DNA of 39,373 nucleotides from IMG/VR virus record IMGVR_UViG_2534681996_000012. One strand, written 5' to 3'. Position numbers and translations under genes: made by a program. The notes under the pieces are model-generated. The model was not told the origin of the DNA. It searched no databases and saw only the letters and a list, made by a program, of their open reading frames with translations. Positions 1 through 39,373 of this stretch are shown here, piece after piece. The stretch's first letter is position 1, and every line of letters begins with the position of its first letter. Source of the DNA: a virus (taxonomy: Duplodnaviria; Heunggongvirae; Uroviricota; Caudoviricetes).

Positions 1-516
1 ATGAAATTTAAAAAATGTCTTCTGCCTGTGGCAATGTTAGCGTCATTCACTCTGGCAGGATGCCAGTCAAATGCTGATGATCATGCCGCCGATGTTTATC
101 AAACCGATCAACTGAATACCAAACAAGAAACTAAAACCGTTAATATTATTTCCATTCTTCCCGCAAAAGTTGCCGTAGACAACTCCCAAAATAAACGAAA
201 CGCACAAGCCTTCGGCGCGCTTATTGGTGCAGTCGCTGGCGGTGTTATTGGCCACAACGTCGGGTCTGGCAGCAATTCCGGAACGACGGCAGGTGCAGTT
301 GGCGGCGGAGCTGTTGGCGCGGCAGCGGGTTCTATGGTGAATGATAAAACCTTAGTGGAAGGTGTTTCTCTAACGTATAAGGAAGGCACCAAAGTGTATA
401 CCTCCACCCAGGTGGGTAAAGAGTGCCAGTTTACGACAGGTTTAGCCGTTGTTATTACCACGACGTATAACGAAACGCGTATTCAGCCAAATACCAAATG
501 TCCTGAAAAGAGCTAA
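1..516 (+). CDS. Lipoprotein with glycine-zipper (SlyB/YcfJ-like) region
   Basis: N-terminus MKFKKCLLPVAMLASFTLAGCQS carries a lipobox (LAGC); central Gly/Ala-rich stretch GALIGAVAGGVIGHNVGSG; ORF begins at window base 1. Confidence 0.6.
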   Translation: MKFKKCLLPVAMLASFTLAGCQSNADDHAADVYQTDQLNTKQETKTVNIISILPAKVAVDNSQNKRNAQAFGALIGAVAGGVIGHNVGSGSNSGTTAGAVGGGAVGAAAGSMVNDKTLVEGVSLTYKEGTKVYTSTQVGKECQFTTGLAVVITTTYNETRIQPNTKCPEKS

Positions 517-5884: not shown

Positions 5885-5978
5885 ATTTACATCGCACTCC
5901 TCTTGTGCCATAGTAATCGGGCACTGGCAAAATCCAGTGCCGGGATTGGCGTCCCGAGTTACTACAGAGGCACATATG

Positions 5979-5998
5979 CCGCATAAGCGGTTTTTTTT
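5979..5998 (+). terminator. Weak intrinsic terminator (short stem plus T8)
   Basis: CCGC-ATAA-GCGG followed by eight T; sits between the small LexA-controlled gene and the antirepressor. Confidence 0.45.
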
Positions 5999-6151
5999 AT
6001 GTGTAAAGCGCACCTATTCTATGGTGGGCTGTGTGGGGGCACCGAAAGGTGCGCCGGGTCCTTTGTAGCCGGTTACGCCAACCCTGCACAGTTCACCACC
6101 AACCGATTGGCGTCGGTAGTGGTGATTAACCTAACTACAAAGGTGATCACT

Positions 6152-6838
6152 ATGACTGCTAACGTAACCCCATCTGTTTTTCATTTTGAATCAGAAGCAA
6201 CCATTCGAGCCATTGTTATTGATGGAAATCCTTGGTTTGTTGCCAAAGACGTTATTAAAGCTCTTCAACTGACAAACCCCACTATGTCAATAAAATCTCT
6301 TGATGATGATGAAAGGGCTAAATTTAACTTAGGCCGTCAAGGCGAAACCAATATTATCAACGAGTCAGGCCTCTACACACTGATCCTCCGCTGCCGCGAT
6401 GCAGTAACACCAGGCACTATCCCCTACCGCTTTCGCAAATGGGTTACAGGTGAGGTACTTCCTCAGATCCGCCGCACCGGAAGTTACATTAAAAACTCGC
6501 TCCCGCAGGAAGAACGCATAAAGATGGTTGCCGACCAGGTAGCCAACGCCACGGCGTCAGCAGTGATGCAGGCAATGAAGATAGAGAACAAAACCTACAG
6601 CGCCCCGCTGAAGCCCGGCTACCGCAGCCTGATTCATTCTCCGTCTGGTGTTCTCGGCCTGACGGAGAACTCACTGCTGATGAATCTGCTGAACCAGTTA
6701 CAGGACGACGGGCACGACGTATCGGGCGCGGCGGCGGAGCTGACCACCATGTTCTGTTACATCGTTGGTGTGAGCAAATGCCTGCGTGATATCCAGACCC
6801 ACGCGGAGTACATCAACGACAAGGCAGGGTTCTTCTGA
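6152..6838 (+). CDS. Bro-N domain antirepressor-like protein
   Basis: N-terminal IRAIVIDGNPWFVAKDV...ESGLYTLILRC...FRKWVTGEVLPQIRRTGSY is a Bro-N signature; ATG 6152 with AAGGTGA 5 nt upstream; track extension to 5999 spans a terminator and is rejected. Confidence 0.75.
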   Translation: MTANVTPSVFHFESEATIRAIVIDGNPWFVAKDVIKALQLTNPTMSIKSLDDDERAKFNLGRQGETNIINESGLYTLILRCRDAVTPGTIPYRFRKWVTGEVLPQIRRTGSYIKNSLPQEERIKMVADQVANATASAVMQAMKIENKTYSAPLKPGYRSLIHSPSGVLGLTENSLLMNLLNQLQDDGHDVSGAAAELTTMFCYIVGVSKCLRDIQTHAEYINDKAGFF

Positions 6839-24960: not shown

Positions 24961-25037
24961 GTGGCATTAGCTCAGTTGGACAGAGCAACCGCCTTCTAAG
25001 CGGTTGGTCGCAGGTTCGAATCCTGCATGCCACGCCA
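24961..25037 (+). tRNA. tRNA-Arg (anticodon UCU)
   Basis: Cloverleaf folds by hand: acceptor GTGGCAT/ATGCCAC, D-stem GCTC/GAGC, anticodon stem ACCGC/GCGGT with loop CTTCTAA, T-arm GCAGG-TTCGAAT-CCTGC, discriminator G and encoded CCA. Confidence 0.85.
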
Positions 25038-25230: not shown

Positions 25231-25259
25231 ATGACCACAAATTACCTTAAAGGTATAAT
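25231..25259 (+). promoter_or_regulatory. Sigma70-like promoter (ATGACC-17-TATAAT) overlapped by operator-like TTACC-TTAAA-GGTAT
   Basis: Perfect -10 TATAAT at 25254-25259; operator variant at 25242-25256. Confidence 0.55.
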
Positions 25260-25284
25260 CATGAAAAACTTTAAGGTAATTAGT

Positions 25285-26109
25285 ATGTTCGAATCGTTCA
25301 AAGAGCTGTTTTTATCTACTGCCAATACTGCCGTGCATCGAGCTAAAAACCCTGTGCTTGGTGCTTTTGTTATGTCCTGGTGCGCCTTCAACTGGAAATC
25401 ACTTCTTTATCTATTTTTTAGCAAATCAAATATAATAGATAAAATTTCATACATCTCAGATAACAGCACATGGAAAACTGTTATGTTTTATCCATGCTTA
25501 TCTGTAATTACTATCTGCTGCCTATTACCATGGGTAAACAATATCATTAACGTATGGCAAGCAAAGCCTCTTGATAATAATGACTCAATCGAAAATCACC
25601 GGAAGGCAAGAAAAATACAACGTGAAACACGGCTACAGAGATTGCTGGCTAAAAAAGACATTACTTACGAAAAAGTAAAAACAGGCGCTGAAAAAAACAT
25701 TCAAGACATGAAAGAGGAAATAATTCTTTCAAAAGACAGAATGGGACAACTCACATCTGAATTGAAAGAGAGGGAGACAGAACTGCGCGCAGAACAAGCT
25801 CGTATTTTAGAATTATCTAAGGTTATTGATGAAACAACATCTAAACTAGAAAATCTAGAAAAAGCTCACAAAAATTTAAAAAACGAATATGAGTCCTATA
25901 AGAAAAACATTCCTTTGGCAACAAATAATACAATTGCTAATGGGCTTGTAGGTCTAAAATCATTACAAGACCTTAATGAGTCCGTAAAGAAACTTGGCGT
26001 TACTGGAATTAACAATCCAGAAATCAATACATTATTGAATAATCCTCTAGTAAATATAAATGGTGGTTTAAATTCCACCTATCAAAGAAAATTAAAAACA
26101 CAAAAGTAA
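25285..26109 (+). CDS. AT-rich accessory protein: two N-terminal TM helices plus long C-terminal coiled coil
   Basis: ATG 25285 with AAGGT 7 nt upstream (track start 25231 lies upstream of the predicted promoter); hydrophobic segments VLGAFVMSWCAFNWKSLLYLFF and VMFYPCLSVITICCLLPW; K/E-rich heptad-like C-half; stop 3 nt from the convergent terL stop. Confidence 0.55.
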   Translation: MFESFKELFLSTANTAVHRAKNPVLGAFVMSWCAFNWKSLLYLFFSKSNIIDKISYISDNSTWKTVMFYPCLSVITICCLLPWVNNIINVWQAKPLDNNDSIENHRKARKIQRETRLQRLLAKKDITYEKVKTGAEKNIQDMKEEIILSKDRMGQLTSELKERETELRAEQARILELSKVIDETTSKLENLEKAHKNLKNEYESYKKNIPLATNNTIANGLVGLKSLQDLNESVKKLGVTGINNPEINTLLNNPLVNINGGLNSTYQRKLKTQK

Positions 26110-29451: not shown

Positions 29452-29751
29452 TCACATCACCCTGAAGCCGTTGCATTTACGTAAGAAATCGCAGATATAG
29501 CCCTTCATTTTTTCATGCCAATCTCGATCATTCCCATTGCACCAACCATCAGGTGGAGTCCAGTTTTCTATCAGAGCAACCATTTTCTTTGCTTTCGCCG
29601 GAGTAGCTGTTGCGGTATCGCAGTAATGACGAGTGTCAACCAACGCATCCATACCATCGATATCAAGTACGCAAAACCATGTGTGATTCGGCATTCCAAC
29701 AGATGGTATTTGTTGCCCACGTCGACGTTTATCAATAAGACATACAGTCAT
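29452..29751 (-). CDS. Hypothetical protein
   Basis: 99-aa ORF, overlapping starts/stops with neighbours. Confidence 0.4.
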   Translation of the reverse strand: MTVCLIDKRRRGQQIPSVGMPNHTWFCVLDIDGMDALVDTRHYCDTATATPAKAKKMVALIENWTPPDGWCNGNDRDWHEKMKGYICDFLRKCNGFRVM

Positions 29752-30293
29752 GGTTCCACCTTCTCTATTTGCTTAAGACCGTCTCTCACTGCATTAAGTA
29801 CGCGTTCCAGATACTGGTATTTCGGGTTTGGTGCCGTTGGCCAGTCGGCATACCACGGATCATCACCAAAGAGATTCAGCAGTTTGTTACCGACACCGAA
29901 ACAACAGCAGCTTTCTTTTACGTCATCGGCGTTTTCCGCCTCGTCCCACATTTCTCGAGCCTGTACCGCGTCGATTTCTCTCTCTCTTCGTAACTTTATG
30001 ATTTCTGACTTCACGAAAAGCAGATTTGCATCGTTGTCATCGTCGACCGTGCTTCGCAGTTGAGGGTCGAAATAGCCGATTAGATACTCGTTGCTGACCC
30101 GCTTAATGAACGTCTGCACATCATCACCGCCCATAGCAAACCAAGCCGCAGTCCACGCTTTTCCGTAGCAGGTGATGGTGATTCTTCCCTTACCAGGTTC
30201 GTAGTTTTCAATCATCACTCTAACCGGATCTAGTCGCTCTGCACCGGTTATAACGAATGACAACACATCAATCTTTTCAACCGTTACACTCAC
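29748..30293 (-). CDS. Hypothetical protein
   Basis: 181-aa ORF in nin-like region. Confidence 0.45.
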   Translation of the reverse strand: MSVTVEKIDVLSFVITGAERLDPVRVMIENYEPGKGRITITCYGKAWTAAWFAMGGDDVQTFIKRVSNEYLIGYFDPQLRSTVDDDNDANLLFVKSEIIKLRREREIDAVQAREMWDEAENADDVKESCCCFGVGNKLLNLFGDDPWYADWPTAPNPKYQYLERVLNAVRDGLKQIEKVEP

Positions 30294-30817
30294 TGGTTGC
30301 CTCCTTTGCGAAGCTCAGCGGCGAAGGCTACTGCGTGATCATGATGTTCAAGTGTGTATGCACACTCCGCAAACATCTCCACGCCCTGCGCTCGTACTTC
30401 AGCCAGGAAAGCATCGGTGGCTGGAATGGGCTTTTGTGGTGATATAGCAATGCGAATTGTCTCAAGGTCTGGATCTGTTTCCGCTGCTGGCACCTTGATA
30501 TAACCCATCTGCACCCCATTCATGATGAACCTGCGACGGTCATCACATATCGCCTTAAGCCCCGCATTCTCCGCTGCCAGCGCCGAAAACTTCTCGTGTG
30601 CCAACTTAACAGCCGCATCAGCCTGCTTAATTGATTCAATCGCTTTCTGGTGGTCTTCGGCCAGCGCATTAGCACGCACCAGTTGCACTTCCAGTTGCGT
30701 TGCCAAATCGCTGAGCAGCTTTGCCACACTACGCATATCAACGGCACCACATTCAGCTTTCAGTTCCGAAGCCATCTCATGCCCGGCGGAAACTAACCCT
30801 TTGATATTACTTTCCAT
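30290..30817 (-). CDS. Hypothetical protein
   Basis: 175-aa ORF in nin-like region. Confidence 0.45.
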   Translation of the reverse strand: MESNIKGLVSAGHEMASELKAECGAVDMRSVAKLLSDLATQLEVQLVRANALAEDHQKAIESIKQADAAVKLAHEKFSALAAENAGLKAICDDRRRFIMNGVQMGYIKVPAAETDPDLETIRIAISPQKPIPATDAFLAEVRAQGVEMFAECAYTLEHHDHAVAFAAELRKGGNQ

Positions 30818-30878
30818 CTTTACCCTCGCTTATCCACATAACTTATTGATTACATTGATAACTAAAAAGATCGTCGAT

Positions 30879-31223
30879 TCAGAACTCTTCGATGTTCCAG
30901 CCACCACCTGCTTTCTTTGGTTTAACCGTTACCCCGATGATTCGGAACGGATACTGATCTGCGGCGACTTTGGTTTTCACCCTGGCGTCGTCGGTCCAGA
31001 AACCTTTCACTTCGTGCAGTTCCATCTCGCCGGTGGCGAGCATCACAGCAAAATCGGGCGTATAGAACGTGTTGTCAGCTAACCGCAGCTTGATACCCTC
31101 AAATCGATACCAGGCTATTTCCCCTGCACGTTTACGCAGCTCAAGGTGCTGGCAATACGCAGATTCTGTTTTGTTCATCTGGCCTGTTTTGAGTCGACCA
31201 AGAGCCTGTATCTGTTTTCTCAT
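30879..31223 (-). CDS. Hypothetical protein, DUF1064-like
   Basis: 114 aa; YTPDF motif; RBS overlapped by operator-like palindrome. Confidence 0.4.
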   Translation of the reverse strand: MRKQIQALGRLKTGQMNKTESAYCQHLELRKRAGEIAWYRFEGIKLRLADNTFYTPDFAVMLATGEMELHEVKGFWTDDARVKTKVAADQYPFRIIGVTVKPKKAGGGWNIEEF

Positions 31224-31226
31224 GAT

Positions 31227-31241
31227 TTACCCCTGAGGTAA
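31227..31241. promoter_or_regulatory. Operator-like palindrome TTACC-CCTGA-GGTAA overlapping the RBS of the 30879-31223 gene
   Basis: Perfect half-sites; imperfect copy TTATC-TAACA-GGTAA at 31289-31303. Confidence 0.5.
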
Positions 31242-31340
31242 TTAAAAACCACATAAGACACGAAATCAATAGATTTTAGAATACTTTATTATCTAACAGG
31301 TAATTATCGAAACGTAAAAAAATGCGCTATCGCGCTGGTA

Positions 31341-32141
31341 TTACTTGATAAATCCTGCCGCCTTTCCTCGCCTGTATTCCTCCATCAGCCACTGCGCCGG
31401 TGTTATTCCCCCAAGGGTGGCGGCGTTAGGCATGCACCCGAAACTTCGCCCTGGTGGATGGTAAACGTCTCTCCCTGTGTCCGGAGGCGTACTCATGGGT
31501 TCTGGCTTTGCCTGTATGCTGATCACCGGATCGGGTATCTGCTGTCCGGAAGCCACCTTTTTCGCCCAATCATCGAGCAGCCTGCGCGCGTGTTTCTCAA
31601 CCTCTATCTCGCTAAGCTGGCGCTGATACATTGCACGGCGGGTATCACATACGACCCAGTACATAACCGGATGCCGCCACGGGAATCTTTCGGGACCACC
31701 AGGATATAAACTTTTTTCCTTGCTGTACCGGTGAAACTCCGTCATCACATCGTCAATGGTGACGCCAAGAACCATCTTGCTGTCTTTGCACCACTTGATG
31801 AATTGCCCTGGCGACGGCCAGAACGGAGAATCACTGGCGCGGGCGTGGCGCATACCAGCAGAAACCTGTTCACGGGTTCGGATCCCCCCTTCGGCAAACG
31901 CAGCAATCCACTGCTGTTTTGCAGCAACTTCCTGCTCTGGCGTCTTCAGGTTGGTTACCACTGCCGCCGGAAACAGTTGTTTCAACTGTTTGAAAAGGGC
32001 ATCAACAAGCCTCTCTGCTGACATGTTCACTACGTTGTCATTGTTGACGTACTGATGCTCATAACCTGACATGCGAGAAAGGGCTTCTCCGTCACGGTTT
32101 TGTATTGCGGTAAAAACGTTGTTCACAAGAAATCCTCCCAT
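31341..32141 (-). CDS. Replication protein, lambda P-like (helicase loader)
   Basis: QWIAAFAEGGIRTREQVSAGMRHARASDSPFWPSPGQFIKWC parallels lambda P QWVLAFRENGITTMEQVNAGMRVARRQNRPFLPSPGQFVAWC; start may be GTG 32126. Confidence 0.75.
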   Translation of the reverse strand: MGGFLVNNVFTAIQNRDGEALSRMSGYEHQYVNNDNVVNMSAERLVDALFKQLKQLFPAAVVTNLKTPEQEVAAKQQWIAAFAEGGIRTREQVSAGMRHARASDSPFWPSPGQFIKWCKDSKMVLGVTIDDVMTEFHRYSKEKSLYPGGPERFPWRHPVMYWVVCDTRRAMYQRQLSEIEVEKHARRLLDDWAKKVASGQQIPDPVISIQAKPEPMSTPPDTGRDVYHPPGRSFGCMPNAATLGGITPAQWLMEEYRRGKAAGFIK

Positions 32142-33689: not shown

Positions 33690-34274
33690 ATGAAAAGTAT
33701 CCAGGACGTCCGCAGGCAAAATCTCAACGACTTGATCGACCGTGAATTCAATGGTGTTCAGACGCGGATGGCAGAAAAACTTGGAACTCAGGCAAATCTG
33801 GTAAACCGCTGGGCTCTTGGCAAGAAGGTTATCGGCGACCAGGTTGCGCGAAAAATTGAAGCTGCCGCCAATAAACCCCGTAACTGGCTTGATATCGATC
33901 GCTCGCTTTCTCAGGAAGGTTTTCAGCCTGTCGGCCCAAGCGACATTGGTCAGCTGGCGGCTCACAACCTGGAACGCTGGATGAGCGAAAGCCGCGACCT
34001 TTCAACACAGGGAAAACTTCACCGCGCATCCGGCGTCGCCCAGGTGACAATCAGCCGCCTGTTAAACAATGAGGTCAGCGTTTCCATTTCCACCCTGGAG
34101 AATGTTGCATCCGCATTCGGGCGTCACGGCTATGAATTACTGATTCACCCGCACGACCCTGCGACCATCAACTATGACCGCTCGCGCTACGCATTGTTAC
34201 CCGAAACCGAGAAAGCAAAGATCGAAAGTTACATTGAATTTGTCATCAACCAGAACGAAAAAAACAAACAATAA
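33690..34274 (+). CDS. Prophage repressor, tandem HTH domains, no LexA-like peptidase domain
   Basis: Two XRE-type HTH-like segments (MAEKLGTQANLVNRWALGKK and LHRASGVAQVTISRLLNNE); no Ala-Gly cleavage site or Ser/Lys dyad; followed by terminator and operator-controlled promoter. Confidence 0.65.
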   Translation: MKSIQDVRRQNLNDLIDREFNGVQTRMAEKLGTQANLVNRWALGKKVIGDQVARKIEAAANKPRNWLDIDRSLSQEGFQPVGPSDIGQLAAHNLERWMSESRDLSTQGKLHRASGVAQVTISRLLNNEVSVSISTLENVASAFGRHGYELLIHPHDPATINYDRSRYALLPETEKAKIESYIEFVINQNEKNKQ

Positions 34275-34294: not shown

Positions 34295-34320
34295 AAGCCG
34301 CCTTCTGGCGGCTTTTTTAT
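34295..34320 (+). terminator. Rho-independent terminator after repressor gene
   Basis: AAGCCGCC-TTCT-GGCGGCTT followed by TTTTTTATT. Confidence 0.75.
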
Positions 34321-34331
34321 TGTCTACACAA

Positions 34332-34408
34332 TTACCTTAAGGGTAATTTTTTTAACTCATATCTATTGACACCAAACCAAATACGCATAATCATTACCTC
34401 AACGGTAA
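34332..34408 (+). promoter_or_regulatory. Early-left promoter (TTGACA ... CATAAT) flanked by two perfect operator palindromes
   Basis: TTACC-TTAAG-GGTAA at 34332-34346; TTGACA 34366-34371; CATAAT 34386-34391; TTACC-TCAAC-GGTAA at 34394-34408. Confidence 0.6.
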
Positions 34409-34582: not shown

Positions 34583-34882
34583 ATGAACGTTAATCAGCAG
34601 CAAAATCTTCAAAAAATCATGCTGGCATTCGACAAGGACTACCGCCTGTCAGAGCAGCTATATGACCGACAAGTTGAACTGATCGAGAGCATCCGGCTTC
34701 ATCAACTAGCCTCAACTTTCGACGCTGTAACAGGTAAAGGCGTTCGCCAGGAAGTACTGGAGGCCGCTAAAGACAGTCCAGAGTTCGAAGAACTGATGGA
34801 TTCCTACCGGCGCGAGGCAATGGCAATTATCGCGCGCTGGGATCTGGCTGATCAGCTTGATGGGCAGAGGGACGCGGCATGA
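34583..34882 (+). CDS. Hypothetical protein
   Basis: ATG 34583 with GGAGG 6 nt upstream (track start 34568 lacks RBS); stop overlaps next start. Confidence 0.5.
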   Translation: MNVNQQQNLQKIMLAFDKDYRLSEQLYDRQVELIESIRLHQLASTFDAVTGKGVRQEVLEAAKDSPEFEELMDSYRREAMAIIARWDLADQLDGQRDAA

Positions 34883-35700
34883 AACCGGGAATTTATTTCG
34901 ACATCAGCAACGAAGACTACCACGCCGGGGACGGCGTGAGTAAGTCGCAACTGGACATGGTTGCCAAGAATCCGGCGCTTCTTAAATGGGTTCAGGCAGC
35001 ACCAGAAGACGAAGAGAAAAAGTCTGCACTGGATATGGGAACCGCATTGCACTGTCTGCTTCTGGAGCCTGGAGAGTTCGACAAACGCTTCATTGTTTCG
35101 CCGAAATTCGATCGTCGGACGAAACAAGGTAAAGCTGACGAAGAGGCATTTCTTCGTGATGTGGCGGATATGGGGATTACGGTACTTGATGCCGAGCAGT
35201 GGCGGAAACTGGAGCTGATGCGTGATAGCGCAATGGCTCACCCGGCGGCACGCTGGATGTTGGAAGCACCTGGTTACTGCGAAGCATCAATGTACTGGAA
35301 CGATGAAGAGACGGGTGAGTTGTGCCGAATTCGTCCAGACAAATGGCTGAACGAGCACAACGTGATCGTCGACGTGAAAAAGGTTGCAGATATGGACCGT
35401 TTTGCACGCCACATCGAGGAGTTCCGCTACCACGTGCAGGACGCAATGTACCGCGAAGGCGCAATGAGGGTTACTGGTCAGCCACATGGTTTTTTCTTTC
35501 TTGCCGTGAGCGAAAGCATTGATTGTGGTCGGTATCCGGTACGCGTGTTCGAGCTGGATGCGCCGGATGTCGATGCCGGGCACGCTCTGTTCCGCCGGGA
35601 TCTGAATACCTATCACGAATGCCGCATCAACGATGAATGGGGCGGAGTGGAAATTATTAAACGCCATGACTGGGCACGTAAACAGGATATGTACGTATGA
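34879..35700 (+). CDS. PD-(D/E)XK-type nuclease (recombination exonuclease candidate)
   Basis: Motif ...RPDKW...IVDVKK consistent with a D...(D/E)xK active site; translationally coupled to the RecT-like gene. Confidence 0.55.
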   Translation: MKPGIYFDISNEDYHAGDGVSKSQLDMVAKNPALLKWVQAAPEDEEKKSALDMGTALHCLLLEPGEFDKRFIVSPKFDRRTKQGKADEEAFLRDVADMGITVLDAEQWRKLELMRDSAMAHPAARWMLEAPGYCEASMYWNDEETGELCRIRPDKWLNEHNVIVDVKKVADMDRFARHIEEFRYHVQDAMYREGAMRVTGQPHGFFFLAVSESIDCGRYPVRVFELDAPDVDAGHALFRRDLNTYHECRINDEWGGVEIIKRHDWARKQDMYV

Positions 35701-36578
35701 GCAATGATATCGCAATCACATCACAACCAGGCGCAACTGTAGGCACTGCTGCGGCAATCTTCAGCCCCGAGGGCATGAATCAACTGGTGCGTTTCGCGGA
35801 GTTGATGTCACAAAGCAAAGCGACTGTACCGGAACATCTTGAAGGCAAACCTGCCGATTGCCTGGCGGTGACCATGCAGGCGGCACAGTGGGGAATGAAC
35901 CCTTTCGCCGTGGCGCAGAAAACGCATGTGGTAAACGGAAAGTTAGGCTACGAAGCACAGTTGGTAAACGCGGTCGTATCCTCTTCCAGCCTGCTGGCGA
36001 CACGCCTGAATTATCGCTGGAGCGGTGACTGGTCGAATGTTAACGGCAAAACAGATAAATCACCGAATCTGACGGTAACTGTGTCAGCAGTTCTTAAAGG
36101 AGAAGCAGAACCACGTGAGCTTACCATCAGTATGGCGCAAGCAGGAGTGCGTAACTCTCCATTGTGGGAACAGGATCCGCGCCAGCAACTTGCCTATCTT
36201 TGCACGAAACGATGGGCTCGCTTGCACGCTCCTGATGTACTTCTCGGTGTTTACACCCCTGACGAATTACAGGAAACGGCACCGCGCGTTGAGCGAGACA
36301 TTACTCCGCAAACGACCACTGCTGCGGGAATGAACAGTCTGATCAACGCTAAACAAGTGAAAAAGCCTGATGAGCAAACGCGTAAAGCGGATAGCCGTGA
36401 TCCAGAAGAAATGCTAATGGCCTTTACCAGCGCAGCGATGAATTACAGCACTGTCTCCGAACTGGATAAAGCTTACAAATACATTGCACAAAAACTTTCA
36501 GATGATGACGAACTGCTGGCAAAAGCCACCGACGTTTACAGCGTTCGTCGGGAAGAATTAAACGAAACATCTATGTAA
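35697..36578 (+). CDS. RecT/Redbeta-like single-strand annealing protein
   Basis: Central region GMNPFAVAQKTHVVNGKLGYEAQLVNAV resembles RecT-family core; ATGA overlap with upstream nuclease gene. Confidence 0.55.
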   Translation: MSNDIAITSQPGATVGTAAAIFSPEGMNQLVRFAELMSQSKATVPEHLEGKPADCLAVTMQAAQWGMNPFAVAQKTHVVNGKLGYEAQLVNAVVSSSSLLATRLNYRWSGDWSNVNGKTDKSPNLTVTVSAVLKGEAEPRELTISMAQAGVRNSPLWEQDPRQQLAYLCTKRWARLHAPDVLLGVYTPDELQETAPRVERDITPQTTTAAGMNSLINAKQVKKPDEQTRKADSRDPEEMLMAFTSAAMNYSTVSELDKAYKYIAQKLSDDDELLAKATDVYSVRREELNETSM

Positions 36579-36627
36579 CCACCACCGCGGCGCCACGCGC
36601 GCCGCACTGCAACCAAGAGAGGTATTT

Positions 36628-36876
36628 ATGAAAGGTGCATTAGGTAAGAAGGAACTCCTGGCGGTGGTGCCACTGTCATGGAGCACTATCGACCGTATGG
36701 AGCGCGCAGGGGAATTTCCTAAACGCTGGTATATCACCGATAAACGCTGCGCATGGAACCGTGATGAAGTTGAGCGTTGGCTTGATGAACGTCAGGCAGC
36801 AAGCCCGGCAGAGTTCCAGGGTAAAAAACCTCCTGTTCAGCAACGTGTATATCGTCCCGTGAGCAACGCGGCATGA
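36628..36876 (+). CDS. AlpA/excisionase-like small DNA-binding protein
   Basis: 82 aa; LLAVVPLSWSTIDRMERAGEFP...WNRDEVERWLDERQ resembles AlpA-type HTH; GAGAGG RBS. Confidence 0.5.
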   Translation: MKGALGKKELLAVVPLSWSTIDRMERAGEFPKRWYITDKRCAWNRDEVERWLDERQAASPAEFQGKKPPVQQRVYRPVSNAA

Positions 36877-36985
36877 GTGTGCTGCTAAGGCACTGGAGCA
36901 AATGGTCAGGATGGTACTTATTCCTGGCCTCTGTTTCTGCATGGCTTTATCTGCTGGCATTAATTTTCAGAGAGGGTTGGATTAA

Positions 36986-37285
36986 GTGAGAAAGTTAAGC
37001 CGACTTGAAAAATATCACATGAACAAGGTTTCAATGCGCAGCCCTTCAAAGGTTGTTGCCGTTACTCCTGCGGCGATAGAGATCGAAAAACGCGCGATTG
37101 AAAGAGAGAAAAAAGGGCAGTTCCGCATTGCCGCCCACCTTTGGCTTCAGTGTATGGATGTTGCTTCTGGTGATGTTGAGCGTGCAAGGATCGCGGTTCG
37201 CAGGGACCAATGTATCACAAAAGGTAACGGCCTTCGCCGTGGCGACTATAGCGGTATAGGATGTTGCGGGGTGGTTTATGACTAA
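36986..37285 (+). CDS. Hypothetical protein
   Basis: GTG start with AGAGGG 9 nt upstream; stop overlaps methyltransferase start. Confidence 0.4.
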   Translation: MRKLSRLEKYHMNKVSMRSPSKVVAVTPAAIEIEKRAIEREKKGQFRIAAHLWLQCMDVASGDVERARIAVRRDQCITKGNGLRRGDYSGIGCCGVVYD

Positions 37286-37928
37286 GAAATACACACTAAT
37301 CTATGCAGATCCACCCTGGGTATACCGGGACAAAGCCGCAGATGGTAATCGCGGTGCCGGTTTTAAATATCCGGTTATGAGTGTGATGGATATCTGCCGC
37401 CTTCCTGTGTGGGATTTGGCCGATGAAAACTGTCTGTTGGCCATGTGGTGGGTGCCAACACAACCACTCGAAGCACTAAAAGTTGTTGAAGCCTGGGGAT
37501 TCCGTCTGATGACCATGAAGGGATTCACGTGGATAAAATGTGGTAGTCGACAACCAGATAAACTGGTTATGGGTATGGGTCACATGACTCGCGCCAATAG
37601 TGAAGATTGCCTGTTTGCAGTAAAGGGAAAACTACCTCCGCGCATTAATGCAGGGATCGTTCAGTCATTTACCGCACCGCGGCTTGAGCATTCAAGAAAA
37701 CCAGATGTCGTTCGTGAAAAACTTGTGCAATTGTTAGGCGATGTTTCTCGCATTGAACTGTTCGCCCGCCAGTCGTCTCATGGCTTCGATGTTTGGGGTA
37801 ATCAGTGCGAAGACCCGGCAGTGCAACTACACCCTGGATACGCGTTGGATATTGCCAGATTAACAAATGCATTCAGCAATGCTCCGCTGTCACCAACAGA
37901 CAACCAGGGGCGGGAGCGTGCAGCATGA
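37278..37928 (+). CDS. N6-adenine DNA methyltransferase, MT-A70 family (orphan)
   Basis: Catalytic DPPW motif in LIYADPPWVY; GGGGTGG RBS; no adjacent restriction enzyme gene. Confidence 0.8.
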   Translation: MTKKYTLIYADPPWVYRDKAADGNRGAGFKYPVMSVMDICRLPVWDLADENCLLAMWWVPTQPLEALKVVEAWGFRLMTMKGFTWIKCGSRQPDKLVMGMGHMTRANSEDCLFAVKGKLPPRINAGIVQSFTAPRLEHSRKPDVVREKLVQLLGDVSRIELFARQSSHGFDVWGNQCEDPAVQLHPGYALDIARLTNAFSNAPLSPTDNQGRERAA

Positions 37929-38119
37929 ACCGGGCATCACCAGCAGATTTAAGGAAATGCCTTGAAACTGCAAACATGCTTGCACACAGCGGGATCAGGT
38001 TTGTTCCAATTCCCGCTGTCACCGATGCTGAATTTGCAACGCTGTCAGCAATATTCGCAGACAAAATTGAATCACTGGCAGCAGAAGCCGAGATGGAAGA
38101 AAATCAGCAGAATAATTAA
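37925..38119 (+). CDS. Hypothetical small protein
   Basis: ATG 37925 overlaps methyltransferase stop (ATGA); track start 37805 is a less likely in-frame extension. Confidence 0.4.
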   Translation: MNRASPADLRKCLETANMLAHSGIRFVPIPAVTDAEFATLSAIFADKIESLAAEAEMEENQQNN

Positions 38120-38122
38120 ACG

Positions 38123-39373
38123 TTATTCCCCCGCCATCCACTTCTCAAACTTCGACGGGGAGAACGGAATCAGATCCGTATGCTCCCCGTCAATCCAAGA
38201 ATCAATCATATCGGCCCACTGCTGCAACATGTAGGCGCGCTGTCTGGCGTATTCCGCTTTGTTATATACGGCGCGCACACCTTTCTGCTCATGTGCCAGA
38301 GCCTTTTCAATCCAGTCTGAAGGATAACCAGCCTCATGCAACAACGTACTGGCTGTACGGCGCATATCGTGTACGGTGAAGTCCTGAATATGCTCACCAT
38401 CTTCATTTATTATTTTCACCGTTCTGTCGATCAGAGAGTTCAGTGCGGCATTAGATAATGGCTTCCGGAAATTGTAACGACCAGGAACCAGGTATTCACT
38501 TCCACCAGCGCACATCTGCAACCCGACCAATATATCCTGTGCCTGTTTAGGCAGGTAAATAACGTGCGCCCGGCTTCCTTTCATGCGGTCTGAAGGAATT
38601 GTCCATGTCCATTTTTTAAAATCTATTTCATCCCACGTTGCATTGGTGAATTCGCCCTTACGAACCATAGTGATAAGCACCAGTTTTAAAGCCATTTTCA
38701 TAGTGCCCATAGCACCAATGGCATCCAGCGTGCGGAAGAACAGGCCAATTTCTTCTGGTGTCAGTGTTCGCTCTCGTGGTTTAAATATGGCGATAGACGA
38801 AGGTTTAATGTCAGCCGCAGGATTAAACAAACCATGACCACGGTCATTGGCGTGACGGTATACGCTACTGATGATCTCCCTGGCCTGCACTGCTGTTGCC
38901 CGGCCACCGCGTTCGACAATCCGGTCACACAAATCACGAACCATCGATGTGGTAATTTCAGCCATCATTTTATTGCCAAGAACCGGAAGTATGTCACGGT
39001 CGATCACCGCCTGTTTCATTGCGCGGGTACTGTCAGCCAGGATGACGTGTTTCATATAACTGTCGGTATGTACCGCAAACGTCTCGGCACCACGAATCTT
39101 TTTGATACCGTCACGTTTAGCCGCAGCCGGTGACTGGCCTGCTTTAAGCAGCTTCTTTGCAGCAATCAGTTCTTCTCGCGCTTCTGCCAGGCTGATACCG
39201 TCACGCCCATACTGCCCGATTACCAGCGTTTCGCGGCGACCGTTGATACGGTAGTCGTAGCGAAACGAGACCGTGCCTGACGTAAGCACAGCTACATACA
39301 GCCCGTCACGATCGGAGACCTTGTACAGTTTGTCCTGCGGCTTGAGGTTTTTTAATTTTGTATCGGTAAGCAC
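38123..39373 (-). CDS. int: Tyrosine integrase, P4-like (N-terminus runs off the window edge)
   Basis: N-terminal LTDTKLKNLKP arm-binding-type sequence; C-terminal catalytic HDMRRT and GVRAVYN (Tyr); ORF open to base 39373. Confidence 0.9.
   Translation of the reverse strand: MLTDTKLKNLKPQDKLYKVSDRDGLYVAVLTSGTVSFRYDYRINGRRETLVIGQYGRDGISLAEAREELIAAKKLLKAGQSPAAAKRDGIKKIRGAETFAVHTDSYMKHVILADSTRAMKQAVIDRDILPVLGNKMMAEITTSMVRDLCDRIVERGGRATAVQAREIISSVYRHANDRGHGLFNPAADIKPSSIAIFKPRERTLTPEEIGLFFRTLDAIGAMGTMKMALKLVLITMVRKGEFTNATWDEIDFKKWTWTIPSDRMKGSRAHVIYLPKQAQDILVGLQMCAGGSEYLVPGRYNFRKPLSNAALNSLIDRTVKIINEDGEHIQDFTVHDMRRTASTLLHEAGYPSDWIEKALAHEQKGVRAVYNKAEYARQRAYMLQQWADMIDSWIDGEHTDLIPFSPSKFEKWMAGE

Follow-up and report, generated by a model that had tools for sequence, protein, structure and literature searches.

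Near one end of an E. coli prophage lies a gene for an adenine methyltransferase with a DPPW motif. What does this enzyme methylate, and when is it made? The window, the entire 39,373-nt stretch of DNA analysed here, is the genome of a phiV10/epsilon15-type (Uetakevirus) temperate podophage found as a prophage in E. coli. Our preferred answer, to which we give a probability of about one half, is that the gene encodes a Dam-like GATC DNA methyltransferase made upon prophage derepression.

The gene and its place in the prophage

The open reading frame occupies positions 37278-37928 on the + strand and begins with the first start codon past the upstream stop. Its 216-residue product was assigned to the MT-A70 family (beta-class) of N6-adenine methyltransferases from Pfam, tblastn, the PGAP name and an AF2 model. 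It is the orthologue of phiV10 gp33 (PhiV10p33), which is annotated as 'putative adenine methylase'. By tblastn it is 97% identical to gp33 and 99.5% identical to its counterpart in phage ZX5; it is identical to RefSeq WP_000163467.1, given the PGAP name 'MT-A70 family methyltransferase' in the prophage of E. coli strain E1. Epsilon15 and the Enterobacter phage Tyrion also carry the methyltransferase, at 76-80% protein identity. The 1.5-kb stretch from the AlpA gene to the DUF1382 gene is 98% identical to phiV10 and, used as a query, was found with 100% identity in the E1 prophage, adjoining guaA. This module is present in 558 of 5,426 complete E. coli genomes, about one in ten. A locus search of IMG/VR returned only copies that are 97-100% identical, and diversity was drawn from species-representative genomes instead. 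As in phiV10 (97-100% identity), the gene fills the slot between the PerC and DUF1382 genes, near a convergent integrase; apart from RecE/RecT, annotated in phiV10 as one fused gene, nothing material differs. The methyltransferase is a standing component of the phiV10/epsilon15 group and no recent insertion. The gene is annotated and widespread, its family has been studied by experiment, and its sequence and context are those that it has in phiV10: it is an ordinary, correctly recognised accessory gene.

Upstream of the operon lie the prophage repressor gene (33690-34274, + strand; PHROG regulator/repressor families, phiV10 gp40) and a terminator identified by the terminator scan (34295-34314). 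A candidate early-left promoter, TTGACA-17-AATCAT (34366-34394, + strand), is sigma-70-like, agrees with 10 of the 12 consensus positions and sits where epsilon15 has annotated repressor operators. The methyltransferase starts about 2.9 kb downstream of this site. No + strand terminator is predicted from the site onwards before position 38119, and a scan confined to sigma-70-like promoters found no further such site on the + strand between 34394 and the methyltransferase.

The early-left genes are closely packed or overlapping and run in the order two small ORFs, RecE-like, RecT, AlpA/Xis-like, membrane protein, PerC, methyltransferase and DUF1382, with the methyltransferase second to last. 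The RecE-like PD-(D/E)XK exonuclease (34879-35700) and the RecT annealing protein (35697-36578), both on the + strand, were identified from Pfam PF12684 and PF03837 and from the epsilon15 annotation. Between the RecT and AlpA genes, a GC-rich hairpin without a T-run (36587-36605, + strand; fold energy -17.3 kcal/mol, z-score -1.29) is the counterpart of a stem-loop annotated in epsilon15 as 'transcriptional pausing'; it is no predicted intrinsic terminator. The hairpin is followed on the + strand by an AlpA-family excisionase/regulator (36628-36876; Pfam PF05930, phrog_66), a 38-residue membrane protein (36873-36989; phrog_17484, E 4.7e-27; phiV10 gp35 is annotated as membrane protein) and a 99-residue PerC-family small regulator-like protein (36986-37285; Pfam PF06069, E 6e-7; phrog_868, E 6.5e-62). 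The PerC-family protein also gives a weak, below-cutoff match to NCBIfam ANR_neg_reg. The stop of the PerC ORF overlaps the methyltransferase start by 8 nt. On the other side, the gene for the 64-residue DUF1382 protein (37925-38119, + strand; Pfam PF07131, E 1.3e-30) starts at 37925 inside the GCATGA of the methyltransferase stop, giving a 4-nt ATGA overlap. Its own stop lies 3 nt from the stop codon of a tyrosine integrase that converges with the operon (38123-39373, - strand; Pfam Arm-DNA-bind_3, Phage_int_M and Phage_integrase). The DUF1382 protein is 51% identical to the product of the gene after the methyltransferase in Stx phage TL-2011c. It also has a homologue in phage lambda (31050-31196), a phage without an MT-A70 gene. 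We take the lambda homologue to be orf63 of the exo-xis region, and the methyltransferase would therefore sit in an exo-xis-like region.

A sequence-only reading of this locus had placed the gene in an early-left operon, and the layout bears this out: the gene is at the distal end, downstream of the repressor gene and the candidate promoter. From this arrangement we infer that the methyltransferase is expressed early after derepression. The same reading took the gene to be translationally coupled to its small neighbours. The overlaps of 8 nt and 4 nt are real, but overlap is generic among phages; in other phages the MT-A70 start is nearly always overlapped by the upstream gene, whatever that gene's identity. 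Such overlap at the start reflects how tightly phage operons are packed and is no evidence for a particular partner.

The methyltransferase is also, as had been claimed, without a partner restriction gene. The phiV10 annotation lists no restriction endonuclease, nor does the PGAP annotation of the E1 prophage and its host neighbours guaA and guaB, and none was detected by Pfam and PADLOC scans of the window ORFs that differ from phiV10. When PADLOC was run on these window-specific ORFs, the methyltransferase model alone matched and the linked endonuclease of a Type II R-M system was not found. The enzyme is solitary (orphan), with no cognate endonuclease adjacent to it or elsewhere in the element. 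One further candidate methyltransferase, ORF 1-516, was rejected; it bears the PHROG label "DNA methyltransferase" and is a TraT-like lipoprotein with an LAGC lipobox and a glycine zipper.

The MT-A70 catalytic domain

Residues 5-176 of the methyltransferase align with positions 1-172 of the 172-position Pfam MT-A70 profile PF05063 (E 3.8e-22; 79.5 bits, the curated cutoff being 23.9 bits). Its PHROGs family is DNA methyltransferase, and PADLOC matches it to a Type II methyltransferase model with E 4.7e-77, a point in favour of DNA as substrate. The catalytic motif IV, DPPW, was read from the sequence at residues 11-14 (37308-37319, + strand). In an alignment of 30 homologues with 60-97% identity, P12 and W14 never vary, with conservation of at least 90% at D11. 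Conservation among the homologues also delimits a C-terminal block, ELFARQSSHGFDVWGNQ (residues 160-176; 37755-37805, + strand), of the form ELFAR...WGNQ; all 30 homologues keep E160, F162, W173, G174 and N175, and at least 90% keep R164. This block aligns with the equivalent block in ciliate MTA1-type chains, and we take it to correspond to the ELFGR...GNQ block with which METTL3 binds AdoMet. The motif order is permuted: motif IV comes first, close to the N-terminus, and the AdoMet-binding block follows.

The AF2 model has a pLDDT of 75.6 and a pTM of 0.77, with low confidence in loops 19-30 and 98-104. Its top Foldseek matches are METTL3 (TM 0.65-0.70, E 5e-14) and Tetrahymena MTA1; by sequence, phmmer places ciliate MT-A70 chains as the nearest solved relatives (E 2.5e-13). 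Profile, motif order and the predicted METTL3/MTA1-like fold all assign the ORF to the MT-A70 family, as the sequence-only reading had recognised from the DPPW motif. METTL3-METTL14 (mRNA m6A) and ciliate MTA1c (DNA 6mA at ApT) share the fold, the DPPW motif and the AdoMet-binding block with the phage protein; however, they are only about 20-25% identical to it and are obligate heteromers with accessory nucleic-acid-binding subunits, whereas the phage protein is a bare 216 residues. Pfam and the AF2 model reveal a bare catalytic domain with no separate target-recognition domain.

The variable loop IKCGSRQPDKLVMGMG (residues 86-101; 37533-37580, + strand), located by alignment, is a candidate substrate-recognition loop. 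Model confidence is partly low here, the pLDDT falling below 50 at residues 98-104. This loop type is common to the methyltransferase and the Stx-phage enzymes; most homologues of the methyltransferase have the version HKTNKHKGNSAI-GMG, and homologues of the BZS1/HK639 type have an insertion of 23-24 residues at this point. The C-terminal tail (residues 188-216; 37839-37925, + strand) is, judging from the alignment and the pLDDT, lineage-specific and largely predicted to be disordered, with pLDDT below 50 at residues 201-216. The usual length of the MT-A70 family here is 188-200 residues, and the tail is a lineage-specific extra.

GATC in DNA or ribosomal RNA as possible substrate

Several relatives of the methyltransferase have reported activity. 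In a dam- host, p32 of Serratia phage BZS1 made plasmid DNA MboI-resistant and DpnI-sensitive and is thus GATC-specific; HinfI and Hin1II (m6A-sensitive) sites were still cleavable, hence its specificity is not relaxed (PMC7556043). The MT-A70 enzyme of Tn1549 (M.EfaBMDam) is also GATC-specific, as cited in that paper (PMC7556043). PhiBZS1_p32, which belongs to the HK639 gp35 group, and M.EfaBMDam resemble our enzyme in family, similar size and solitary status, and the PhiBZS1_p32 group shares with it the integrase-proximal early region of temperate phages. PhiBZS1_p32 differs in its loop type, and the GATC specificity was measured in those enzymes only. The transfer of specificity from p32 is uncertain because the two proteins have only 40% identity and p32 has a 23-residue insertion after residue 95, in the candidate recognition loop.

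The Stx-phage enzyme, gp13 of TL-2011c, is closer. Over residues 1-187 it aligns gap-free with the methyltransferase at 83% identity; beyond residue 187 the match ends. According to Gong et al., REBASE annotates the Stx2a-phage enzyme group as GATC enzymes, and M.EcoGV, a close relative of the Stx2a-phage enzyme, methylates GATC in vivo when overproduced (PMC10810198). M.EcoGV is listed as a GATC enzyme also in PMC6602927. The same loop type, the alignment without indels and the reported GATC specificity of this 83% identical group suggest that GATC may be the target of our enzyme as well. TL-2011c, which we take to be a near relative of the O104:H4 Stx phage, has two annotated methyltransferases only, one belonging to an R-M pair and the other being the MT-A70 enzyme, a set that fits M.EcoGV being the Stx-phage MT-A70 gene. 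Across the codons for DPPW, the mutagenic primer used in PMC10810198 agrees with TL-2011c, and the peptide that it specifies is identical.

A Dam-like GATC methyltransferase would act as follows. As a conserved solitary MT-A70 enzyme (beta-class, motif IV first) of phiV10/epsilon15-type podophages, encoded in what appears to be a repressor-controlled early-left operon, it would be made on infection or induction along with the recombination genes, as the layout suggests. Its most likely target would be the adenine of GATC in DNA, the same as that of host Dam, and rapidly replicating, possibly recombining phage DNA might in this way become fully GATC-methylated while host Dam is limiting. With no cognate nuclease encoded, a dam+ host would gain no new motif. 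The earlier expectation that the enzyme would imprint a new methylation motif on lysogens is not supported as it stands. The gene lies behind the candidate repressor-controlled promoter, and the specificity reported for relatives is GATC, for M.EcoGV in PMC10810198 and PMC6602927 and for BZS1 p32 in PMC7556043. Because host Dam already modifies this site, even an active enzyme would not be expected to add a motif. The absence of an extra m6A motif, proposed earlier as a refutation, likewise cannot discriminate in a dam+ strain because GATC coincides with the host Dam site. The methyltransferase will probably escape notice when methylomes of dam+ strains are compared, its predicted site being the Dam site.

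Other observations count against GATC. Purified M.EcoPA8orf6770P, of the 83% identical Stx2a-phage group, shows SAM use near background when supplied alone with dam- DNA in vitro (PMC10810198). The GATC report for M.EcoGV is second-hand and rests on overexpression, and a GATC enzyme would duplicate host Dam with a selective benefit that is not obvious. The phage sequence itself is uninformative: its 150 GATC sites give an observed/expected ratio of 0.98 (zero-order) or 0.76 (Markov), similar to other palindromes, and being neither avoided nor tellingly clustered they are compatible with every specificity reading.

The weak activity of the Stx2a-phage enzyme by itself leads to a different proposal, in which our methyltransferase would be an RNA (16S rRNA) adenine methyltransferase tuning prophage induction, alone or with a different partner. 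M.EcoPA8orf6770P forms a 1:1 complex with PNB-2, the 143-residue product of the upstream gene; this complex prefers RNA over DNA more than 13-fold, with 16S rRNA preferred, and it raised spontaneous Stx prophage induction (PMC10810198). The published activities of M.EcoPA8orf6770P and M.EcoGV thus conflict, being 16S rRNA with PNB-2 for the one and GATC DNA in vivo for the other. With them our enzyme shares the subfamily of the catalytic subunit and the variable-loop type; in the Stx2a phages, too, a DUF1382 gene comes next and the locus is near the integrase end of the prophage. The 83% identity of the catalytic domain and the presence of the mRNA enzyme METTL3 among the nearest solved structures also favour RNA. 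The backbones differ, however (Sepvirinae versus Uetakevirus), and where the Stx2a phages have PNB-2 upstream the window has a PerC gene. A tblastn search found no match to PNB-2, the subunit that directs the rRNA preference, anywhere in the window, nor is the upstream PerC protein similar to it. The C-terminal tail of the Stx-phage enzyme is suspected by the authors to bind PNB-2 (PMC10810198); past residue 187, our alignment shows the tail of the window's enzyme to be unrelated to this STEC-type tail. With PNB-2 absent and the tail replaced, the mechanism reported for rRNA cannot be carried over directly to the phiV10-type enzyme. The modified rRNA base was moreover never identified in PMC10810198, and the upstream neighbour varies widely among homologues. 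We consider an rRNA enzyme unlikely here. In HK639, a PNB-2 homologue is encoded two genes upstream of the MT-A70 gene, a further difference from the window.

The distinction matters, as published work disagrees on DNA versus RNA as the substrate of the phage MT-A70 clade, and in the phiV10-type gene nature supplies a variant lacking PNB-2, which would make a clean test case. In the Stx2a phages, the gene of the close relatives is linked to spontaneous induction and virulence (PMC10810198).

Self-protection and candidate partners

Anti-restriction self-protection, the function that the sequence-only reading had favoured, is a plausible role for the orphan methyltransferases of phages as a class. 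Applied to this enzyme, it would mean a DNA methyltransferase with its own non-GATC or relaxed specificity, shielding incoming or replicating phage DNA and giving a new m6A motif when expressed. This is a common role of solitary phage methyltransferases in early operons, a bare catalytic domain lacking a separate recognition domain would suit it, some homologues adjoin C5 methyltransferases, and E. coli prophage enzymes of relaxed specificity exist, for example M.EcoGI and M.EcoGII (PMC5778455). M.EcoGII-type enzymes, however, come from a different family, and the cleavable HinfI and Hin1II sites show that BZS1 p32 is not relaxed (PMC7556043). GATC is, moreover, the only specificity reported for this MT-A70 clade (PMC7556043, PMC10810198, PMC6602927). 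A non-GATC or relaxed enzyme thus seems improbable. The classical phage Dam enzymes (T4, P1, VT2-Sa; alpha class), M.EcoGI and M.EcoGII are likewise solitary phage-borne adenine methyltransferases, but they belong to unrelated or distant families with other domain orders and sizes, making this a functional analogy only. As a rule such enzymes are silent in lysogens, and their presumed role is the protection or marking of phage DNA (PMC5778455, PMC4659465).

The gene might also encode a catalytic subunit with essentially no activity of its own that needs a small co-encoded protein, PerC-family or orf63-like DUF1382, for substrate binding; it might even be a regulatory relic. The solved MT-A70 enzymes, METTL3-METTL14 and MTA1-MTA9-p1-p2, are heteromers, and the Stx homologue needs PNB-2 (PMC10810198). 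Against this, BZS1 p32 is active when cloned alone (PMC7556043). What lies upstream varies from phage to phage: PerC in the window, small ORFs in Tyrion, HK639 and yong1, a DUF1317 gene in one Klebsiella phage, PNB-2 in the Stx phages. The context of MT-A70 loci was also surveyed in 50 species-representative genomes and is mixed. At 9 of 43 loci the upstream neighbour is a PerC-like gene, more than for any other kind; the PerC-like gene directly overlaps the methyltransferase start in 5 of the 9, and in 3 of the 9 the PerC-like protein has an extra wHTH-like N-terminal domain, all of which would favour a partnership. In most Uetakevirus-type loci, however, other genes lie between PerC and the methyltransferase. 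DUF1382 was rejected as an obligate partner, having a homologue in lambda, where there is no MT-A70 gene, and being missing from the 50 diverse loci. Nor did a relationship between PerC and PNB-2 come to light: BLAST found none, and hhalign gave a probability of 0.3% with thin alignments. A subunit dependent on either small protein is therefore quite doubtful, and we continue to prefer a Dam-like GATC enzyme. Elsewhere in the survey, MT-A70 is at some loci preceded by a NinB-like gene and followed by a RusA-like gene, and at two a C5-cytosine methyltransferase adjoins it; these MT-A70 contexts are DNA-metabolism neighbourhoods, which favours a DNA substrate.

A more specific version holds the PerC protein to be the nucleic-acid-binding partner of the MT-A70 enzyme, as PNB-2 is in the Stx phages. 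The two-subunit holoenzyme would have a specific RNA or DNA target and would tune induction or host physiology, rather than modify bulk phage DNA. If true, it would be the first biochemical role in phage biology for PerC/Pch-like proteins; we regard it as very improbable. Two PerC-methyltransferase fusions, P0003 and P0004, were considered as Rosetta-stone evidence and rejected. They look like single frameshift (single-base) or deletion events on single contigs, which also counts against a need for PerC, and the PerC search found no such fusions beyond these two. In P0239, the N-terminal half of PerC is joined to DUF1382.

Mosaic alleles of the methyltransferase gene

The allele of the MT-A70 methyltransferase (37278-37928, + strand) found in Stx phages is similar to the window enzyme only as far as residue 187; the tail beyond this point corresponds to window positions 37839-37925. 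The homologous protein P0076 is a hybrid. Its N-terminal half is of the type found in Serratia phage BZS1 and phage HK639 and carries a 24-aa insertion, and its C-terminal half and tail are of the window type. The P0076 hybrid and the end of similarity to the Stx allele at residue 187 together show intragenic recombination. Judged from these alignments, the methyltransferase gene is a mosaic (window 37839-37925; homologues P0076, P0019 and P0007). In several Stx2a-converting phages of O157 (tblastn records H86-H91) the match to the methyltransferase is limited to residues 94-187. Such truncated matches fit the reported disruption of the phiPA2 allele by IS629 (PMC10810198).

Neighbouring genes

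Three homologous loci in Dryocola and Buttiauxella prophages (L108, L109 and L112) have a gene that overlaps the MT-A70 start and encodes a protein of 147-170 aa, the upstream ORFs terminating at about 2504-2510 of each locus. These proteins possess an extra wHTH-like N-terminal domain as well as a PerC-like C-terminal half. The architecture is reminiscent of PNB-2, the upstream-encoded partner of an MT-A70 enzyme from a Stx2a phage; profile comparison of the L108/L109/L112-type proteins with PNB-2 gave no significant relationship. A homologue of PNB-2 (55% identity) was located in phage HK639 as gp37 (912-1340 of locus L088), two genes upstream of the MT-A70 gene, thus PNB-2-like genes occur outside Stx phages too. 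The HK639 MT-A70 gene belongs to the same group as BZS1 p32, the member shown to be GATC-specific.

In one genome the N-terminal half of PerC is fused to DUF1382 in a 102-aa protein (P0239). The joining implies an in-frame deletion that took out the methyltransferase gene, so the prophage can be carried without it.

The early-left operon and other loci

The integrase gene faces the early-left operon tail to tail, with only 3 nt between their stop codons (38119-38123). No terminator was predicted between these stop codons, thus early-left transcripts would enter int in the antisense direction. RecE-like and RecT proteins are encoded by two overlapping ORFs in the window (34879-36578), as they are in epsilon15, whereas the phiV10 record (29722-31482) annotates a single fused gene.

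A tRNA-Arg(TCT) (24961-25037, + strand) adjoins an ORF of 292 aa (25231-26109, + strand), which beyond its assignment to phrog_4780 (function unknown) has only weak coiled-coil matches of the SMC, LmuB or DruC type. Since both sit between the terminase and portal genes and oppose the minus-strand structural operon, the pair resembles a moron. A glycine zipper and an LAGC lipobox are present in the TraT-like lipoprotein encoded by the ORF at 1-516 (+ strand). The name 'DNA methyltransferase' given to its PHROG family, phrog_1277, is apparently a labelling error of the database. Rfam matches to isrK RNA (5921-5997, + strand, 74 bits) and C4 antisense RNA (6017-6103, + strand, 79.5 bits) lie at the beginning of an ORF of Bro-N/antirepressor-like type (5999-6838, + strand). 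This arrangement looks like an immI-type system as in P1/P7, here carried by this podophage, with an antirepressor under antisense control.
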